A stretch of DNA of 64,000 nucleotides from Octopus sinensis (taxonomy: Eukaryota), in the NCBI RefSeq assembly GCF_006345805.1, contig NC_043006.1, forward strand, positions 81,282,001 through 81,346,000, in the 5' to 3' direction. The notes below the pieces were generated by a model, which saw only the letters and a list, made by a program, of their open reading frames with translations, was not told the DNA's origin and searched no databases. Within the stretch, counting starts at the first letter, position 1; each line of letters opens with the position of its first letter. Positions 37,164 through 64,000 of this stretch are shown here, in pieces. A program made the translations under genes and the position numbers.

Positions 37164-40100
37164 GGTAGTGGCTAGCGAATTTCTTCACTACCTCAGGGAG
37201 TGACGACCCTGCCTGACACGAGTTCCGGGCTCAGCTGGCTCCGGCTGACAGTACCCGGTATGGGCCCCTATCCTGGGTTACGGAAAGGAGACAACTTCAA
37301 AGAAATCCGGAGTGGAGCCCCGAAGGCGGTTTAGTGTTCGACTCGACACTCTTCCTGCAGCTCCTGCAATCAAGCTGGTGCCAAACGTAATGCACTGCAC
37401 TCCTTTGGACTACATCAGCAAGGTCGAGAGAGGAAACCTGACGATTGGGCTACCCAGAACTTTCTTATCTCTAGCTCAGGCCTGCGCAAAACTGGAGAGT
37501 ACACTTCAGTGCTGCTGTAAAAAGCTGCAGAAACAACACGGGAGGTAACAGTTACGAGTGATAAGTCCATTCAGATTGGCGTAAAATATGGGCGCTACGG
37601 GTTACCTCTGACGGTGGGAGGGACCTCCGTGTCCTCTTGGTTAGCTACTGCCCACCTCAAGCTGGGCAGCGCCCAGTTAATAAGGTGCTGACCCGCTACA
37701 GGCCGCCTGCTTCATTGGGTACTTGGAGCTAAGAGTATGACTTGAAAAGCGGCCTGCAACCTCTGCACCAGGCAAACAACTAAAAGTCAAGAAACCACCA
37801 GTCCTGCGGTTGGCAAGCTGGAATGTCAGGACATGTGCCCTGGAATATCTGATGATCTACTCAGGGTTGAAGAAGACACAAGGAAAAACGGCCATCATGA
37901 CCGTGAACTAAAGAGGCTCAACATAGACATTGCTGGGCTACAGGAGACAAGACTTCCCTCAAACGGCAAACTCAAAGAGCAGGATTTCACCTTCTTTTGG
38001 CAGGGAAGAGATCCAGAAGAACTTCGTCAACATGGCGTTGGCTTTGCAGTGAGAAACTCATTACTCTCATCAATAGAACCACCATCAGGAGGCACTGAGC
38101 GTATCCTCTCACTGCGCCTCTCGACGTCTGGCTCAGTACATCTACTCAGCATCTATGCTCCCACTCTCTACAGCTCTCTACAGTTCTACAAAGATCTCAA
38201 CTGTGTCATAGAAAATATACCAACGACTGAAAATATCTACCTTCTAGGGGATTTTAACGCTCGCGTGGGATCTGACCATGATTCGTGGCTCATTTGTATT
38301 GGACACTTTGGTATTGGCAACATGAATGACAATGGTCAGAGACTACTCGAATTCTGCACATACCATAACCTGTGCCATCACAAACAATTCTTTACAACAA
38401 AGCCATCCACAAGGCATCTTGGAGACATCCAAGATCTCACCACTGGCATCAGCTGGATCTCATCATTACACGGAGATCCTTTCTGAATTCTATTCTATTG
38501 ACCCACAGTTACCACAGCGCGGATTGTGACACAGACCACTCACTAATTAGAAGTAGGGTGAGGATTCTGCCTAAAAAAGTCCATCGCTCCAAGAAAGTGG
38601 GCCGACCACGCATTAACACTGCCAGAACCTCGGACCCTACACTGCGAAAATGTTTTGCTGCTTCTATCAAGGTTGTCCTCAGTAGCTGCCCAACCTCCTC
38701 TGCTGAAAGTAGGTGGAACTATATCAGGGCAGCTCTGTATACGACATCAATAGATACTTTCGGCATGAGAGAAAGGCAAAACCCAGATTGGTTCAATGCT
38801 GGGCTCTCAGAGCTGGAGCCAGTTATCGATGCAAAGCGTGCAGCTCTGATGCAATACAAGAATGACTCTTCTACAAATTCACTCGAAGAACTCAGAAAGG
38901 CAAGAAATAAAACCCAACTGACAGCCAGACGCTGTGTAAACAGGTATTGGCAGGAAATCTGTCAGAGTATCCAGCCAGCTGCTGACAGGGGCGACACCCG
39001 TGGGATGTATGCCGGTTTGAAGAAGGCCCTCGGTCCATCCGCAACCAAGTCAGCCCCTCTGAAATCAACTACTGGAGATCTCATCAGGGATCAAAGCAAG
39101 CAAATGGATAGATGGATGGAGCACTACCAGGATCTCTACTCACGAGAGACTACAGTGGCTGAGGCTGCAGTCGAGAGTGTCAAGATCTTGCCAGTAATGT
39201 GCGAACTTGACAGTCCGCCATCTATAGCAGAGCTCACCGAGGCTGTTGACTCCCTAGCAAGAAACAAGGCTCCGGGAAAAGACGGCATCCCCTCAGAGAT
39301 CATCAAAGCCGGCAAAAACACCATCCTGCTTCGGCACCTTCATGAGCTTCTGTGTCAGTGCTGGGAAGAGGGTACAGTCCCTCAGGATATGCGGGATGCT
39401 AACATCATTACGCTTTACAAAAACAAAGGTGACCGTGGTGATTGTAACAATTACCGTGGAATATCTCTTCTAAGCCCTATCCTGGCCAGGCTACAACTAC
39501 TTGCTTCTCAAATCTATCCGGAATCGCAGGGTGGCTTTAGAAGAAGCAGATCAACTATCGATATGATATTCTCCATACGCCAACTTCAGGAGAAGTCCAG
39601 AGCAGAAAATGCCATTATATATGGCCTTCATTGATCTAACAAAGGCCTTTGACTCGGTAAGCAGAACAGGCCTCTTCATCCTACTCCAAAAAATCGGATG
39701 TCCACCAAAGCTGCTGAGGATCATCAAGTCTTTCCATGATGACATGCAAGGCACCATACAGCACAAAGGTTCAACATCAGCCGCCTTCCAAATAAAAAAC
39801 GGGGTAAAGCAAGGTTGTGTCCTCGCTCCTACATTGTTTGACATCTTCTTCTCGCTCTTACTCTCACATGCCTTTCAGACATCAGATGATGGAGTGTTTC
39901 TGCACAGTAGAAGTGACGGGAAACTGTTCAATCTCTCGCGCCTGCGTGCCAAGACCAAAATCAGAAACGTCCTGATCAAGGCGATGCTATTTGCTGATGA
40001 TGTCGCTTTGGTATAACACACAGAAGAAGCCCTCCAAAGGCTCATTAACTGTTTTGAGCAAGCATGTAACGACTTTGGCTTAGCTATCAGCCTTAAGAAG

Positions 40101-40975
40101 ACCAACATCATGGGTCACGCTACACCAGACATCCCAAACATACATATTAGAGACCACAGATTACAAGAGGTGGAGAAGTTTACCTATCTCGGCTCTACCG
40201 TCACCTACAACCTATCCCTTGACGCTGAGCTCAATATACGCATTGGCAAGGCAGCTGCTGCGATGGCCCAACTCTCCAAACGGGCTTGGGACAACAATAA
40301 GCTGACCAAGACCACGAAAATGAAGATCTACCAGACATGTGTAGTTAGCACCCTACTGTATGGAAGTAAGACTTGGATGCTATACACACGCCAAGAGCGT
40401 CGCCTAAACATTTTTCACCTGCGCTGCCTCCGAAAAATCCTCCGCATCAAATGGCAGAATCATATCCCCAACAAAGATGTCCTCAGGCAAGCAGGAATAC
40501 CAAGCATGTTTGCACTCCTCACACAAAGACGTATGAGATGGCTTGAGCATGTTAGCCGTATGAAAGATGGCAGAATCCCCAAGGATATACTCTACGGAGA
40601 GCTTGCTAGGGGTACTACGTCTGTGGGTAGACCGTTCTTACGTTACAAGGATGTTTGCAAAAGGGACATCATGAAAGCCTGCAACATCAATATTAGCGGT
40701 TGGGAGGCAGTTGCCGGCAACCGTGGAGACTGGCGACGTACCGTAAAAGAGGGAATACAAAGGAGTGACAGAGAGAGAAAGGAGAAATGAAAGACAAAAA
40801 AAGACGTCAACAAGAAACTATGGCATTACAACCAGCCAGGAACAGTCTTCGTTACATTTGCGGTACCTGCCAGAGGGAGTGTTTGTCCAGGATAGGACTA
40901 CACAGCCACAGCAGGAAATGTATCAGGACATGAAATGTAAAAGCTGGAGTAGACTACTTTATGCGCAACTCCATT
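37164..40975 (+). mobile_element. RTE-clade (BovB-like) LINE, near full length, inactivated
   Basis: Structured ~600-bp 5' UTR. APE motifs LASWNVRT, LQETR, GVGFAV, IYAPT, GDFNARVG, DTDH. RT motifs KAPGKDG, NYRGISLL, FIDLTKAFDSV, GVKQGCVLAPTLF, LFADD, FTYLGS. C-terminal RMRWLEHV..RIPK..GRP and YICGTCQRECLSRIGLHSH. Confidence 0.95.
37790..40930 (+). pseudogene. Frameshifted APE-endonuclease/reverse-transcriptase ORF of the RTE LINE
   Basis: Successive ORF pieces 37833-38486, 38372-39634, 39609-40016 and 40110-40790 are separated by frameshifts and a stop. Confidence 0.92.
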
Positions 40976-58172: not shown

Positions 58173-58271
58173 ATGTATGTATATATTATATATATATTAT
58201 ATATATATATGTATGTATATAATATGTGTATGTATATATATGTTTATGGCTGTATATATATATATATATGT

Positions 58272-58314
<43 letters not shown>

Positions 58315-58339
58315 TATATATATATATATATATATATGT

Positions 58340-58388
<49 letters not shown>

Positions 58389-58667
58389 CAACAATTGAGG
58401 GTAAAATTAATTAATTAATCAATTTCACCAGTATTCAGTATGCAAAGGGACCATTTAAGGCGAATTCAAATTATTACATTATAAAAAGGGCTTAGTAAAA
58501 TAAATTACTTTGCCGCATACTGAACTCATTAGAAATAGCAGCTAAAAAAAACTTTTTTAAAACTATTTCTAATACTTAAAGAAAACCTCTCTCATATAGT
58601 GTTTGCTCAATTCAACTCACGCAAATATGGGGGTAGAGACATTAAAAAATCAAGTGCAAAGGTTATT

Positions 58668-58720
58668 TGAGAACGTACGTTTCAAGATTAGTCAAAGTCG
58701 ACATTTCTATCATCAGCTCA
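58668..58720 (-). ncRNA. Type I hammerhead motif, array unit 1 (also at 59224-59276, 60876-60928, 61434-61486; CUGUUGA variant at 59779-59831 and 60317-60369)
   Basis: Reverse complement reads tgagCTGATGAtagaaatgtcgactttgactaatcttGAAAcgtacgTTctca at the same offset in each unit. Confidence 0.65.
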
Positions 58721-61700
58721 GAACTCCCTGGTTGGATTTGAAAACACTGAAAGTGGGAGCATACCCTTTCGGCTTCCTCTCGCTTCTGAAGATCTGCTCG
58801 TAACTAACAGTGCCAACAAACTCAAAAATGCGAGCGAAGAATTTCTGCTCTCCCATTTCCACCAGCGTGGGTTAAAATCAGTAAACACTATGCTTTTTTC
58901 GGTAAAATCCGCGGCATTTATAGAGAGAGATGAATTATAATTTCAACAATTGAGGTAAAATTAATTAATTAATCAATTTCACCAAGTATTCAGTATGCAA
59001 AGGGACCATTTAAGGCGAATTCAAATTATTACGTTATATAAAAGGGGTTAGTAAAATAAATTACTTTGCCGCATACTGAACTCATTAGAAATAGCAGCTA
59101 AAAAAAACTTTTTTAAAACTATTTCTAATACTTAAAGAAAACCTCTCTCATATAGTGTTTGCTCAATTCAACTCACGCAAATATGGGGGTAGAGACATTA
59201 AAAAATCAAGTGCAAAGGTTATTTGAGAACGTACGTTTCAAGATTAGTCAAAGTCGACATTTCTATCATCAGCTCAGAACTCCCTGGTTTGGATTTGAAA
59301 ACACTGAAAGTGGAGCATACCCTTTCGGCTTCCTCTCGCTTCTGAGATCTGCTCGTAACTAACAGTGCCAACAAACTCAAAAATGCAAGCGAAGAAATTC
59401 TGCTCTCCCCTTTCCACCAGCGTGGGTTAAAATCACTAAACACTATGCTTTTTTCGGTAAAATCCGCGGCATTATATAGAGAGAGATGAATTATAATTTC
59501 AACAATTGAGGGTAAAATTAATTAATTAATCAATTTCACCAAGTATTCAGTATGCAAAGGGACCATTTAAGGCGAATTCAAATTATTACATTATATAAAA
59601 GGGCTTAGTAAAATAAATTACTTTGCCGCATACTGAACTCATTAGAAATAGCAGCTAAAAAAAACTTTTTTAAAACTATTCTAATACTTAAAGAAAACCA
59701 CTTTCATATAGTGTTTGCTCAATCAACTCACGCAAATATGGGGGTAGAGACATTAAAAAATCAAGTGCAAAGGTTATTTGAGAACGTACGTTTCAAGATT
59801 AGTCAAAGTCGACATTTCTATCAACAGCTCAGAACTCCCTGTTTGGATTTGAAAACACTGAAAGTGGGAGCATACCCTTTCGGCTTCCTCTCGCTTCTGA
59901 AGATCTGCTCGTAACTAACAGTGCCAACAAACTCAAAAATGCAAGCGAAGAATTTCTGCTCTCCCCTTTCCACCAGCGTGGGTTAAAATCAGTAAACACT
60001 ATGCTTTTTTCGGTAAAATCCGCGGCATTATATAGAGAGAGATGAATTATAATTTCAACAATTGAGGGTAAAATTAATTAATTAATCAATTTCACCAAGT
60101 ATTCAGTATGCAAAGGGACCATTTAAGGCGAATTCAAATTATTACATTATATAAAAGGGCTTAGTAAAATAAATTACTTTGCCGCATACTGAACTCATTA
60201 GAAATAGCAGCTAAAAAAAACTTTTTTAAAACTATTTCTAATACTTAAATAAAACCTCTCTCAACTCACGCAAATATGGGGGTAGAGACATTAAAAAATC
60301 AAGTGCAAAGGTTATTTGAGAACGTACGTTTCAAGATTAGTCAAAGTCGACATTTCTATCAACAGCTCAGAACTCCCTGGTTTGGATTTGAAAACACTGA
60401 AAGTGGGAGCATACCCTTTCGGCTTCCTCTCGCTTCTGAAGATCTGCTCGTAACTAACAGTGCCAACAAACTCAAAAATGCAAGCGAAGAATTTCTGCTC
60501 TCCCCTTTCCACCAGCGTGGGTTAAAATCACTAAACACTATGCTTTTTTCGGTAAAATCCGTGGCATTATATAGAGAGAGATGAATTATAATTTCAACAA
60601 TTGAGGGTAAAATTAATTAATTAATCAATTTCACCAAGTATTCAGTATGCAAAGGGACCATTTAAGGCGAATTCAAATTATTACGTTATATAAAAGGGCT
60701 TAGTAAAATAAATTACTTTGCCGCATACTGAACTCATAAGAAATAGCAGCTAAAAAAAACTTTTTTAAAACTATTTCTAATACTTAAAGAAAACCTCTCT
60801 CATATAGTGTTTGCTCAATTCAACTCACGCAAATACGGGGGTAGAGACATTAAAAAATCAAGTGCAAAGTTTATTTGAGAACGTACGTTTCAAGATTAGT
60901 CAAAGTCGACATTTCTATCATCAGCTCAGAACTCCCTGGTTTGGATTTGAAAACACTGAAAGTGGGAGCATACCCTTTCGGCTTCCTCTCGCTTCTGAAG
61001 ATCTGCTCGTAACTAACAGTGCCAACAAACTCAAAAATGCAAGCGAAGAATTTCTGCTCTCCCATTTCCACCAGCGTGGGTTAAAATCAGTAAACACTAT
61101 GCTTTTTTCGGTAAAATCCGCGGCATTATATAGAGAGAGATGAATTATAATTTCAACAATTGAGGGTAAAATTAATTAATTAATCAATTCCACCAAGTAT
61201 TCAGTATGCAAAGGGACCATTTAAGGCGAATTCAAATTATTACACTATATAAAAGGGCTTAGTAAAATAAATTACTTTGCCGCATACTGAACTCATTAGA
61301 AATAGCAGCTAAAAAAACTTTTTTAAAACTATTTCTAATACTTAAAGAAAACCTCTCTCATATAGTGTTTGCTCAATTCAACTCACGCAAATATGGGGGT
61401 AGAGACATTAAAAAATCAAGTGCAGAGGTTATTTGAGAACGTACGTTTCAAGATTAGTCAAAGTCGACATTTCTATCATCAGCTCAGAACTCCCTGGTTT
61501 GGATTTGAAAACACTGAAAGTGGGAGCATACCCTTTCGGCTTCCTCTCGCTTCTGAAGATCTGCTCGTAACTAACAGTGCCAACAAACTCAAAAATGCAA
61601 GCGAAGAATTTCTGATGATAGAAATGTCGACTTTGACTAATCTTGAAACGTACGTTCTCAAATAACCTGTGCACTTGATTTTTTAATGTCTCTACCCCCA

Positions 61701-62160
61701 TATTTGCGTGAGTTGAATTGAGCAAACACTATATGAGAGAGGTTTTCTTTAAGTATTAGAAATAGTTTTAAAAAAGTTTTTTTTAGCTGCTATTTCTAAT
61801 GAGTTCAGTATGCGGCAAAGTAATTTATTTTACTAAGCCCTTTTATATAATGTAATAATTTGAATTCGCCTTAAATGGTCCCTTGCATACTGAATACTTG
61901 GTGAAATTGATTAATTAATAATTTTACCCTCAATTGTTGAAATTATAATTCATCTCTCTCTATATAATGCCGCGGATTTTACCGAAAAAGCATAGTGTTT
62001 ACTGATTTTAACCCACGCTGGTGGAAAGGGGAGAGCAGAAATTCTTCGCTTGCATTTTTGAGTTTGTTGACACTGTTAGTTACGAGCAGATCTTCAGAAG
62101 CGAGAGGAAGCCGAAGGGTATGCTCCCACTTTCAGTGTTTTCAATCCAACCAGGGAGTTC

Positions 62161-62213
62161 TGAGCTGATGATAGAAATGTCGACTTTGACTAATCTTGAA
62201 ACGTACGTTCTCA
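62161..62213 (+). ncRNA. Type I hammerhead ribozyme motif (inverted arm of the array)
   Basis: TGAG-CTGATGA-T-AGA-aat-GTCG-actt-TGAC-taa-TCT-T-GAAA-CGTACG-TT-CTCA. Stem I TGAG/CTCA, core CUGAUGA and GAAA, palindromic stem III, GUU cleavage triplet. The first stem II pair is a non-canonical U.U. Confidence 0.65.
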
Positions 62214-64000
62214 AATAACCTTTGCACTTGATTTTTTAATGTCTCTACCCCCATATTTGCGTGAGTTGAATTGAGCAAACACTATATGAGAGAGGTTTTC
62301 TTTAAGTATTAGAAATAGTTTTAAAAAAGTTTTTTTAGCTGCTATTTCTAATGAGTTCAGTATGCGGCAAAGTAATTTATTTTACTAAGCCCTTTTATAT
62401 AATATATATATATATATATATAAACGTATACACACACATAGAGAGAATGAGCGAGCGAGAGAGAGAGGGTTTGAGAGAAAATCTGAATCTGGTACACCGA
62501 TATATAGTGAGAATGGCAGGGACAGATAGTCCGACATACATAGAAAAGGAAAGAACATCAGAGAAGGAGGAAGAGAGAAAGAGGAATAGAGAAAGAGAAA
62601 GCGACTCTATAATTTTATTTTATAAAAGTGTTTGTGTATTCAATACACGTAATACCATATGTTTATCACTTCAAAACTTGAAATTTGACAATGAAATTAC
62701 TCCAAGCATCTTCGGTGTAGTAATTATCGTGTCGAATCTCACTGGTAAATCTTCTCAAAATAGCCAGTTAAAATTTGTGAACGCTGAGAGCATACTGCAA
62801 TGACGTCATCCAATGATCGTTGATAGCGTGACAGCTGCAACACTATAATTTTAAAAGTTCAAGATATCAACATGTGTGTCCAGAGTATATTTTTTATATG
62901 GAAATAGTTGTTGTTGATGCTTTGTTGAATCCTGTATTACCGTTCATTGACCAGTACATTCTGGTATTAAATAATGGTTATACCTGCGTTTTCTTCCGTC
63001 CGTTTACTTTTCGTGTTCAAATACTGTCGAGGTGCACTTTGCCTTTCTTTCAATTGGGTTCGATAAAATATGGTATATGTCAAGTACTGAGGTCACAATA
63101 ATAATCTAACTCCCCTGGCGCTAAATACCTATATTAGGAACTGTCAATTTACTGAATTCAGTCATTGGACTGCGGTCATACCGTAGCTCAACTTTCAACA
63201 GTTTTAGTTGAAAGTTACAATCATCGTAATGATGAATAAATAATACCAAAACTTTTTCCCAATCTCCTGAGTAACATGTGTGTATGTGTGTGTGTGTGCG
63301 TGTGTGTACTTATGTATATACATATAAATATATGTATACACACACACACATACATACACACACATATGTAATGTATACGCCCGAAACGTAAAAGACGTTC
63401 CACTTTTCCCAAGCGTCAAACTACTATACTTGCTTGTTGTTCCTACATCTGGCCTCGTCTTTGTTTTTATATATATACATACATCCTGCTTCCCCCCTCT
63501 CTCTCACATGTTTTGGCCCTGTCTTTCTTTAAATCCCACTATTTCCCACTCGTTTATCTCCCCTGTAACTTTCTCTTTGTCTTTGATTTTTTCTAATCCT
63601 TCAATTCCGCAGCCCCCTACCCATCTCTCCTCCTTCCACGTGACCGGTGTCCGGCCAGCTATGATCTTTCTTTCTGGGCCTGACTGCCGACCGCCAACGC
63701 TTCTTACGTCCATCTCCTATGCTCTTGCTTTAGGCTTTCACTTCATACACGCCAGCCCAATCGAATTCATTGTCAGTCGAAAGGCATCTGTTGTTTTATT
63801 CTTGTGTGTATTCGTAAAAGTGTACCATGTTTTTCGTTTTTTGTCTTTTTTTGTGTACTATGTTCTCCGTTTTTTTCTTTGTTGCCGTACACATTCGGTA
63901 GCTTTCTTACAAAGGTGTCTAATGCTCTTAGCTTAGACTTTTGTTCGAACCGACTCAAGTGTAACTGCCCAAAATGGTCATGACTTCAGGTACTTGACTG

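Follow-up and report, generated by a model that had tools for sequence, protein, structure and literature searches.

A two-armed array of hammerhead-bearing units

The stretch of DNA analysed here, referred to as the window, comprises 64,000 nucleotides of the Octopus sinensis genome (assembly GCF_006345805.1, contig NC_043006.1, positions 81,282,001 to 81,346,000). Between positions 58382 and 62402 it holds 4.0 kb of a repeated unit of about 555-559 nt that carries a type I hammerhead ribozyme motif and is bounded by two (TA)n tracts. We propose that this array is a non-LTR (long terminal repeat) retrozyme insertion, probably copied in trans into a (TA)n tract by the reverse transcriptase (RT) and endonuclease of a Penelope-like element.

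A preliminary description, made from the letters alone, had reported a tandem array of near-identical units of about 559 bp at this place. The boundaries are confirmed, as is the unit, whose copies are 95-99% identical within the window array; a single unit at 60049-60590 carries a deletion of about 20 nt and measures 538 nt. The array is not a simple tandem, however, but consists of two arms in opposite orientation (Table 1). Counting unit positions from the predicted ribozyme cut site, the left arm of 5.8 units, with the ribozyme sense on the minus strand, has its inner end at unit 381 (61614) and its outer end at unit 292 (58382). The right, inverted arm of 1.4 units on the plus strand extends from an inner end at unit 512 (61612) to an outer end at unit 194 (62402). 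All described parts of the ribozyme were found, namely stems I-III, the CUGAUGA and GAAA elements and the GUU triplet with its predicted cut after 62209 on the plus strand, together with the self-complementary palindrome ACGUACGU of stem III and an additional internal helix formed by TTCAGTATGC and GCATACTGAA. The assignment of one hammerhead to each unit holds for seven complete motifs; two of these carry a change of A6 to U, and an eighth at 61612 is truncated at the junction and lacks the 5' strand of stem I. Intact motifs do stand in consecutive units, at 58666/59222 and at 60874/61432. The array is non-coding, with stop-to-stop frames of 99-111 amino acids only, and an open reading frame (ORF) for RT and GIY-YIG domains, looked for in the unit and the window array, was not found.

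Table 1. Parts of the retrozyme insertion in the window; RT, reverse transcriptase; TRF, Tandem Repeats Finder.
Feature	Positions	Strand	Basis
(TA)n target tract, left flank	58176..58381	.	TRF 58176-58384, period 2; sequence
Long arm, 5.8 units, ribozyme sense; outer end unit 292 = site A	58382..61614	-	
Tail of about 98 nt (unit 194-292) between the two inferred RT starts; at the end of this arm only	58382..58480	-	inferred from the PAc system as reported in PMC11167929
Best-conserved stretch of the unit (about 100-292), with three helices predicted around the two start sites; candidate element for RT binding	58382..58575	-	
Type I hammerhead motif, intact core; predicted cut between 58672 and 58671	58666..58724	-	
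Type I hammerhead motif, intact core	59222..59280	-	
Hammerhead motif, A6 to U; predicted inactive, or consensus error	59777..59835	-	
Hammerhead motif, A6 to U; predicted inactive, or consensus error	60315..60373	-	
Type I hammerhead motif, intact core	60874..60932	-	
Type I hammerhead motif, intact core	61432..61490	-	
Inversion junction, 3-nt overlap of the arms (unit 381 meets unit 512)	61612..61614	.	
Inverted short arm, 1.4 units; outer end unit 194 = site B	61612..62402	+	
Type I hammerhead motif, intact core; predicted cut after 62209	62157..62215	+	
(TA)n target tract, right flank	62403..62423	.	sequence

Outer ends of the insertions are fixed

The window array is one copy of a young, dispersed and protein-free family. 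A 29-mer taken from the 3' half of the ribozyme has 1967 exact matches in the 2.72-Gb genome, against 0 for the reversed control. The first 100 listed of these matches fall into 45 clusters on contig C1, and extrapolation from this ratio gives an estimate of about 900 insertions. Searches with diverged copies revealed at least two older subfamilies, a second of about 82% identity per unit and a third that is 72-78% identical to the second; a pattern for these two yielded 587 matches, and one for an older hammerhead yielded 0. Short fold-back relatives retain the 3' block of the unit only. The stretches L151-L180 hold an older family of such fold-back insertions, about 280 nt long, that could be confused with miniature inverted-repeat transposable elements (MITEs). 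The RNA of the unit is predicted to be strongly self-paired (z = -4.51, with 0 of 100 shuffles folding as well), and the predicted circular folds are alike in two subfamilies. Short contigs from four runs cover most of the unit; their RNA origin is guessed, and they carry no information about expression. In a circular RNA, moreover, the junction would read the same as that between tandem units in the genome.

The 45 consecutive clusters on contig C1 represent the least biased set of insertions, and in this set all 71 of 71 outer ends are flanked by (TA)n and fall either at site A, near unit 292 (38 ends), or at site B, at unit 191-210 (33 ends). The ribozyme cut site was never the end of any of the 71 arms. 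Two arms are present in 26 of the 45 insertions, in every case with their 3' ends outward, and in 25 of these 26 an end at A is paired with an end at B (p = 4e-7). Inner ends are scattered along the unit, and the arms meet through overlaps of 0-9 nt or up to 11 filler letters; a target-site duplication is not discernible within the TA tracts. The 40 best-scoring stretches, obtained with a query that favours the 292 end, all have one end at unit 292, and 26 of them have an inverted arm whose other end lies at 193-209. A query taken from a region common to the two arm types brought up 10 further two-armed insertions, every one of which combined 292 with 193-210, as well as single arms of either type. 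A second, unrelated non-coding hammerhead element at L135:6264-7375 (C6:12.735 Mb) likewise has two arms and lies in (TA)n, its outer ends being separated by 115 nt; the same anatomy seems to recur in other families.

Similarity to Penelope-like elements

Endonuclease-bearing (EN+) Penelope-like elements with a Neptune/Nematis-type linker served as the system of comparison (PMC11167929, PMC8557442, PMC3846280). Inverted, 5'-truncated arms and a tail of 30-40 nt at one end are described as typical of Penelope-like elements (PMC8557442, PMC3846280). The purified enzyme PAc is reported to cut and extend both strands of AT-rich DNA, and to start at two positions within the RNA, the distance between which matches the genomic tail (PMC11167929). 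The octopus insertions share with EN+ Penelope-like elements the partial tandems, the inverted 5'-truncated arm, the tail at one end, the AT-rich or (TA)n targets, and a hammerhead that precedes the 3' end and has a palindromic stem III. They differ in that the unit is devoid of an ORF and that the tail measures about 98 nt rather than 30-40 nt; moreover, the start sites of the unit carry TATA microhomology to the target, whereas those of PAc are non-homologous.

The octopus genome itself holds 5029 GIY-YIG candidates, among them intact ORFs of 775-781 amino acids that combine RT and GIY-YIG domains and carry the DKG motif and a CX4CxxC linker. In one RT-GIY-YIG family the copies run into (TA)n at either of two TATA sites separated by about 40 nt (19 loci, 7 of them tailed and 12 tailless). 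The earlier proposal of a retrozyme written back into DNA by a Penelope-type RT is thus supported both by the anatomy of the insertions and by intact elements in the same genome that end in the same manner.

Further elements were noted in the course of this comparison. From L255:6083 to L069:2640 (C1:29.144-29.148 Mb) a Penelope-like copy of a second family, with an inverted arm of its 3' untranslated region (UTR) and a tail of about 30 nt on the main arm only, is flanked by two insertions of the retrozyme family. L133, L134, L135 and L136 contain a young family of Penelope-like elements whose 781-aa RT-GIY-YIG ORFs are intact and, in two copies, overlap with an upstream frame of 479 aa; the 3' UTR of this family bears repeated TGACGT and ATTGG boxes, and the descriptor found no canonical hammerhead there. 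Additional motifs that resemble a type I hammerhead and have a palindromic stem III occur at L139:5667, L137:8021, L137:8416 and L142:5132. One of these belongs to the 3' UTR of an RT-GIY-YIG family, and its stem II has U.U at the base. Within the window, positions 37746-40790 contain frameshifted ORF fragments resembling a long interspersed nuclear element, with endonuclease- and RT-like motifs, which we take to be RTE-like.

Conservation of the hammerhead motif

The Rfam covariance models returned no hammerhead match at E <= 1 (10 kb) or at E <= 10 (141 nt), and a plain hammerhead descriptor also matched four unrelated places within the 64-kb window. The motif by itself therefore did not suffice and required comparative support, which its conservation in three subfamilies provides. 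The catalytic letters do not vary among 18 sequences chosen to represent the three subfamilies; position 7 is variable. Pairing is maintained in 96.3% of 269 cells in 15 named pairs, as compared to 19-50% for slid controls. In stem II, two pairs have changed on both sides (A-U/G.U/G-C and C-G/U-A), and the number of cells exceeds the shuffle control (0/500), although related sequences can exceed that control. Positions 10.1-11.1 are mismatched throughout, as U.U, A.A or C.A depending on the subfamily. The preliminary description had considered the U.U pair atypical, but it is also reported in the axolotl hammerhead HHR_Amex2 (PMC7229834) and in PMC3088659. Stem III comprises 2 bp and is closed by a loop of GUAC or GGCC, both palindromic, or of GUAAC. 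Two copies are predicted to co-fold through the stem III palindrome into a dimer at -30.8 kcal/mol, and the ribozyme is presumably weak and dimer-assisted.

Among three representatives, identity amounts to 58% in the hammerhead region, 51% at unit 293-495 and 73% at unit 121-292. The conserved block around the start sites is predicted to fold into three conserved helices with 43 consensus pairs, 3 of which have changed on both sides, and unit 100-292 or thereabouts is a candidate for an element bound by the RT.

The A6 changes in the window lie in 59821-59827 and 60359-60365. A6, at unit position 515, is the column most often polymorphic within arrays out of 520 (9 of 61 loci, mean 1.1%). Genome-wide, 30 changes at A6 (15 to G, 13 to T and 2 to C; 1141 wild type) compare to 3 at A9, a tenfold excess that is sporadic within arrays. 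The variants lie on the reverse strand of the assembly in 17 of 22 loci (p = 0.02), and the excess was not clearly repeated in older subfamilies, with 1 change among the first 100 listed of 587 matches. A 1-methyladenosine followed by U is reported to cause A-to-T misreading in vitro (PMC4787781). Such misreading would fit the A6 excess, but the strand bias and the older subfamilies tell against it.

The template for insertion

In the 71 arms the cut site is crossed 113 times, and none of the inner ends (0/71) lies within 6 nt of it, where 1.6 would be expected by chance. Junction 14-mers spanning the cut site are exact in 230 of 245 cases, in a set of which part was selected by exact match across the junction; the remainder show mostly single-letter losses, and no scar of added letters was observed. 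Linear cleaved monomers, which would have to account for these crossings in the face of neither a pile-up of ends nor a scar, were rejected as a template. As there is neither a stop nor a scar at the cut site, the template should be a circle or an uncut multimer.

The units diverge by 0.8% within an arm, 1.1% between the arms of an insertion and 4.4% between loci, and each insertion has its own haplotype that is carried by both arms. Five variants are private to one of 78 loci and fixed in all units that cover them; four of these span both arms. These figures speak for a bottleneck of one unit. An older-subfamily segment in L051 and distant fragments in L069, L246 and L255 were excluded from these counts, the rearranged or split loci L036/37, L244, L247 and L276 were excluded from tests of register, and columns near gaps and segment ends were omitted. 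An apparent in-register likeness of the two arms (0.70% vs 1.10%, p = 0.009) became non-significant once sites were matched, with only locus L273 remaining clear. Stepwise duplication of single units is unsupported, as sharing of variants between adjacent units (5) stays below the expected 7.7.

Discussion

A retrozyme insertion written by a Penelope-like enzyme probably accounts for these observations. In the sequence of events that we envisage, a Penelope-like enzyme would cut both strands of a TA tract, whereupon one DNA end would prime at site A of the RNA (unit 292) and the other at site B (about 194-210), both of which are UA-rich. Each complementary DNA strand would extend for a variable length and past the ribozyme cut site, and the inner ends would then join through overlaps of 0-9 nt or short fillers. 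The template would be a covalently continuous RNA, in most cases a circle, formed as the hammerhead cleaves slowly with the help of dimer formation and then ligates, and occasionally an RNA of several units. Copying from circles would regenerate the length of the array and give rise to one haplotype per insertion. Rolling-circle copying has been proposed before, for Penelope RNA (PMC4209133) and for retrozymes (PMC7229834).

A number of observations weigh against this explanation or parts of it. The rule of ends has exceptions: L243, in the set of 45 insertions, combines A with A, and L294, from a further set chosen for A6 changes, is joined tail to tail. BLAST detected no autonomous element with DNA of the unit among 50 GIY-YIG stretches, drawn from 150 scored of the 5029 candidates and dominated by one family, or among the Penelope ORFs that flank the family. 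Matches near GIY-YIG loci were only neighbouring copies of the retrozyme family in shared TA tracts. DNA in common with the unit is absent from the RT/GIY-YIG elements sampled, and for this reason the partner is inferred by anatomy and not named. As for the ribozyme, the count of pairs changed on both sides (2) does not exceed that in shuffled data (308/500), conservation of the entire hammerhead region scarcely exceeds that of the remaining unit (58% vs 51%), and the predicted active fold of the monomer, at -5.0 kcal/mol, lies 5.9 kcal/mol above the local minimum of -10.9 kcal/mol. Eight of nine predicted retrozyme dimers reportedly did not cleave (10.64898/2026.07.22.740005), and the dominant substrate of PAc is described as uncut RNA (PMC11167929). 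Finally, a clean model of monomer circles fails for long arrays. Alleles specific to a unit are common to both arms 18 times, where roughly 0.4 would be expected from independent errors, and the nearest unit sits in another locus for 43 of 117 units. An arm of 13 full units at C16:39.07 Mb and one of 17 at C1:157.52 Mb, the longest of the new arms, show a higher-order periodicity, of 5 units in the former (p = 0.011) and of 4 in the latter (p = 0.035). Note that these two arms were picked via their A6 changes, so that two of nine arms with shared variants lend modest support; the other seven were non-significant, and four more arms had no shared variants. The patterns in long arrays may possibly reflect multi-unit circles, block duplication at the DNA level or cross-talk in the assembly.

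The most serious rival takes the family as real but regards the long arrays, the periods, the shared variants and the A6 changes as artefacts of assembly and polishing that are uninformative on the template. We consider this unlikely, although it retains some weight. The substitution spectrum within arrays is flat and error-like, and together with the strand bias at A6 this warns that part of the variation within arrays may be consensus error; for the inversion junction of the window itself, no bridging by independent contigs was shown. On the other hand, polishing cannot generate fixed ends, A+B pairing or haplotypes specific to a locus, short-read contigs of run X17 hold many distinct orientation joints (15 listed of 40, possibly from the sample of the assembly itself), and in the C16 array single-letter losses are non-periodic where substitutions are periodic. 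Somewhat less probable still is a Penelope-type insertion from the uncut, linear read-through of an existing array, in which the hammerhead would be a weak relic or act at another step and long arrays would arise by block duplication of DNA. PAc takes unprocessed RNA, and its ribozyme mutants are reported to insert normally in vitro (PMC11167929). The arms of L273 have four unit-specific variants in common in the register of their outer ends, the 4- and 5-unit periods are partly limited to the inner part of the long arms, and the short arm of the C16 array fits none of the unit classes. The mismatch at 10.1-11.1 and U17 also suggest an attenuated ribozyme. Against this stands the preservation of core and stem pairing through three subfamilies at 72-88% identity. 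Furthermore, shared variants are not enriched in adjacent units, the register effect across all loci is not significant (10/18 vs 6.7 expected, p = 0.08), and linear copying by itself could only make arrays shorter and would not easily bring a new variant to fixation in every unit of both arms.

A more elaborate form of the circle model, which we hold to be rather improbable, reads the arrays as fossil records of RNA circles, including circles of 2-5 units held together by dead or blocked ribozymes, on which one enzyme dimer starts both strands 98 nt apart and rolls round. It would explain the pairing of A with B, the periods of 4-5 units, the variants common to both arms and the A6 excess, which could stem from the RT misreading a modified base by which the ribozyme is silenced within the circle. 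An ordinary satellite or a MITE-like DNA element with an incidental hammerhead-like motif is largely refuted and has very little probability left. Non-coding tandem units, inverted ends, the lack of an Rfam match and the descriptor matches elsewhere in the window would be in line with it. The inverted arms, however, are of variable length and bear two different fixed outer ends, unlike terminal inverted repeats, the inner ends are scattered, the conserved letters are the catalytic ones, and the same pattern of ends is found on RT-encoding Penelope elements of this genome.

Non-LTR retrozymes are established in coral, mussel and axolotl (PMC7229834), and a vertebrate survey, a preprint of July 2026, argues from co-occurrence and from trees of Penelope pLTRs that retrozymes are non-autonomous Penelope derivatives (10.64898/2026.07.22.740005). 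By its sequence, the octopus family is a new one with the hallmarks of a non-LTR retrozyme. Like the metazoan non-LTR retrozymes described in these two reports, it consists of non-coding tandem units of low GC content with one type I hammerhead each, its RNA is self-paired, its loci are dispersed and no LTR is present. The unit had been thought unusually long, but with consensus lengths of 51-972 nt reported (10.64898/2026.07.22.740005) it falls within the known range. The two-armed inverted insertion, the two fixed start sites and the targeting of (TA)n set it apart from metazoan retrozymes as described there. With the axolotl HHR_Amex2, whose monomer reportedly cleaves to 22% in an hour and whose dimer does so better (PMC7229834), it shares a stem III of 2 bp capped by a tetraloop and, in stem II, a basal U.U pair; it differs in its GUU triplet, an internal loop in stem II and the alternation of U.U, A.A and C.A at 10.1-11.1 by subfamily. 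Chlamys elements of the MRC1 type are described as similarly non-coding, Penelope-dependent and inserted as head-to-tail multicopies, but they are algal, lack a hammerhead for the most part and have a 3' end similar to that of their autonomous partner (PMC8557442). No cephalopod retrozyme was found in the literature searched, although the supplements of PMC7229834 and PMC4209133 and the tables of the preprint may list one. Penelope families with recent activity are listed in an octopus repeat annotation of 2026, which did not come up among the papers that contain 'hammerhead'.

According to a 2020 review (PMC7761336), retrozyme repeats show no motif that identifies the mobilising partner, and the enzyme that mobilises animal retrozymes has so far been argued from co-occurrence and pLTR similarity. 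The ends of the octopus insertions, as read from the genome, are unusually direct evidence for the mobilisation of a retrozyme by Penelope. They link it to the two-start mechanism of these elements in hundreds of young copies, in which the two DNA ends almost always use different start sites. The family thereby offers a testable handle on whether circular RNA serves as the template of tandem Penelope-type insertions, and on how a single enzyme complex writes both strands.

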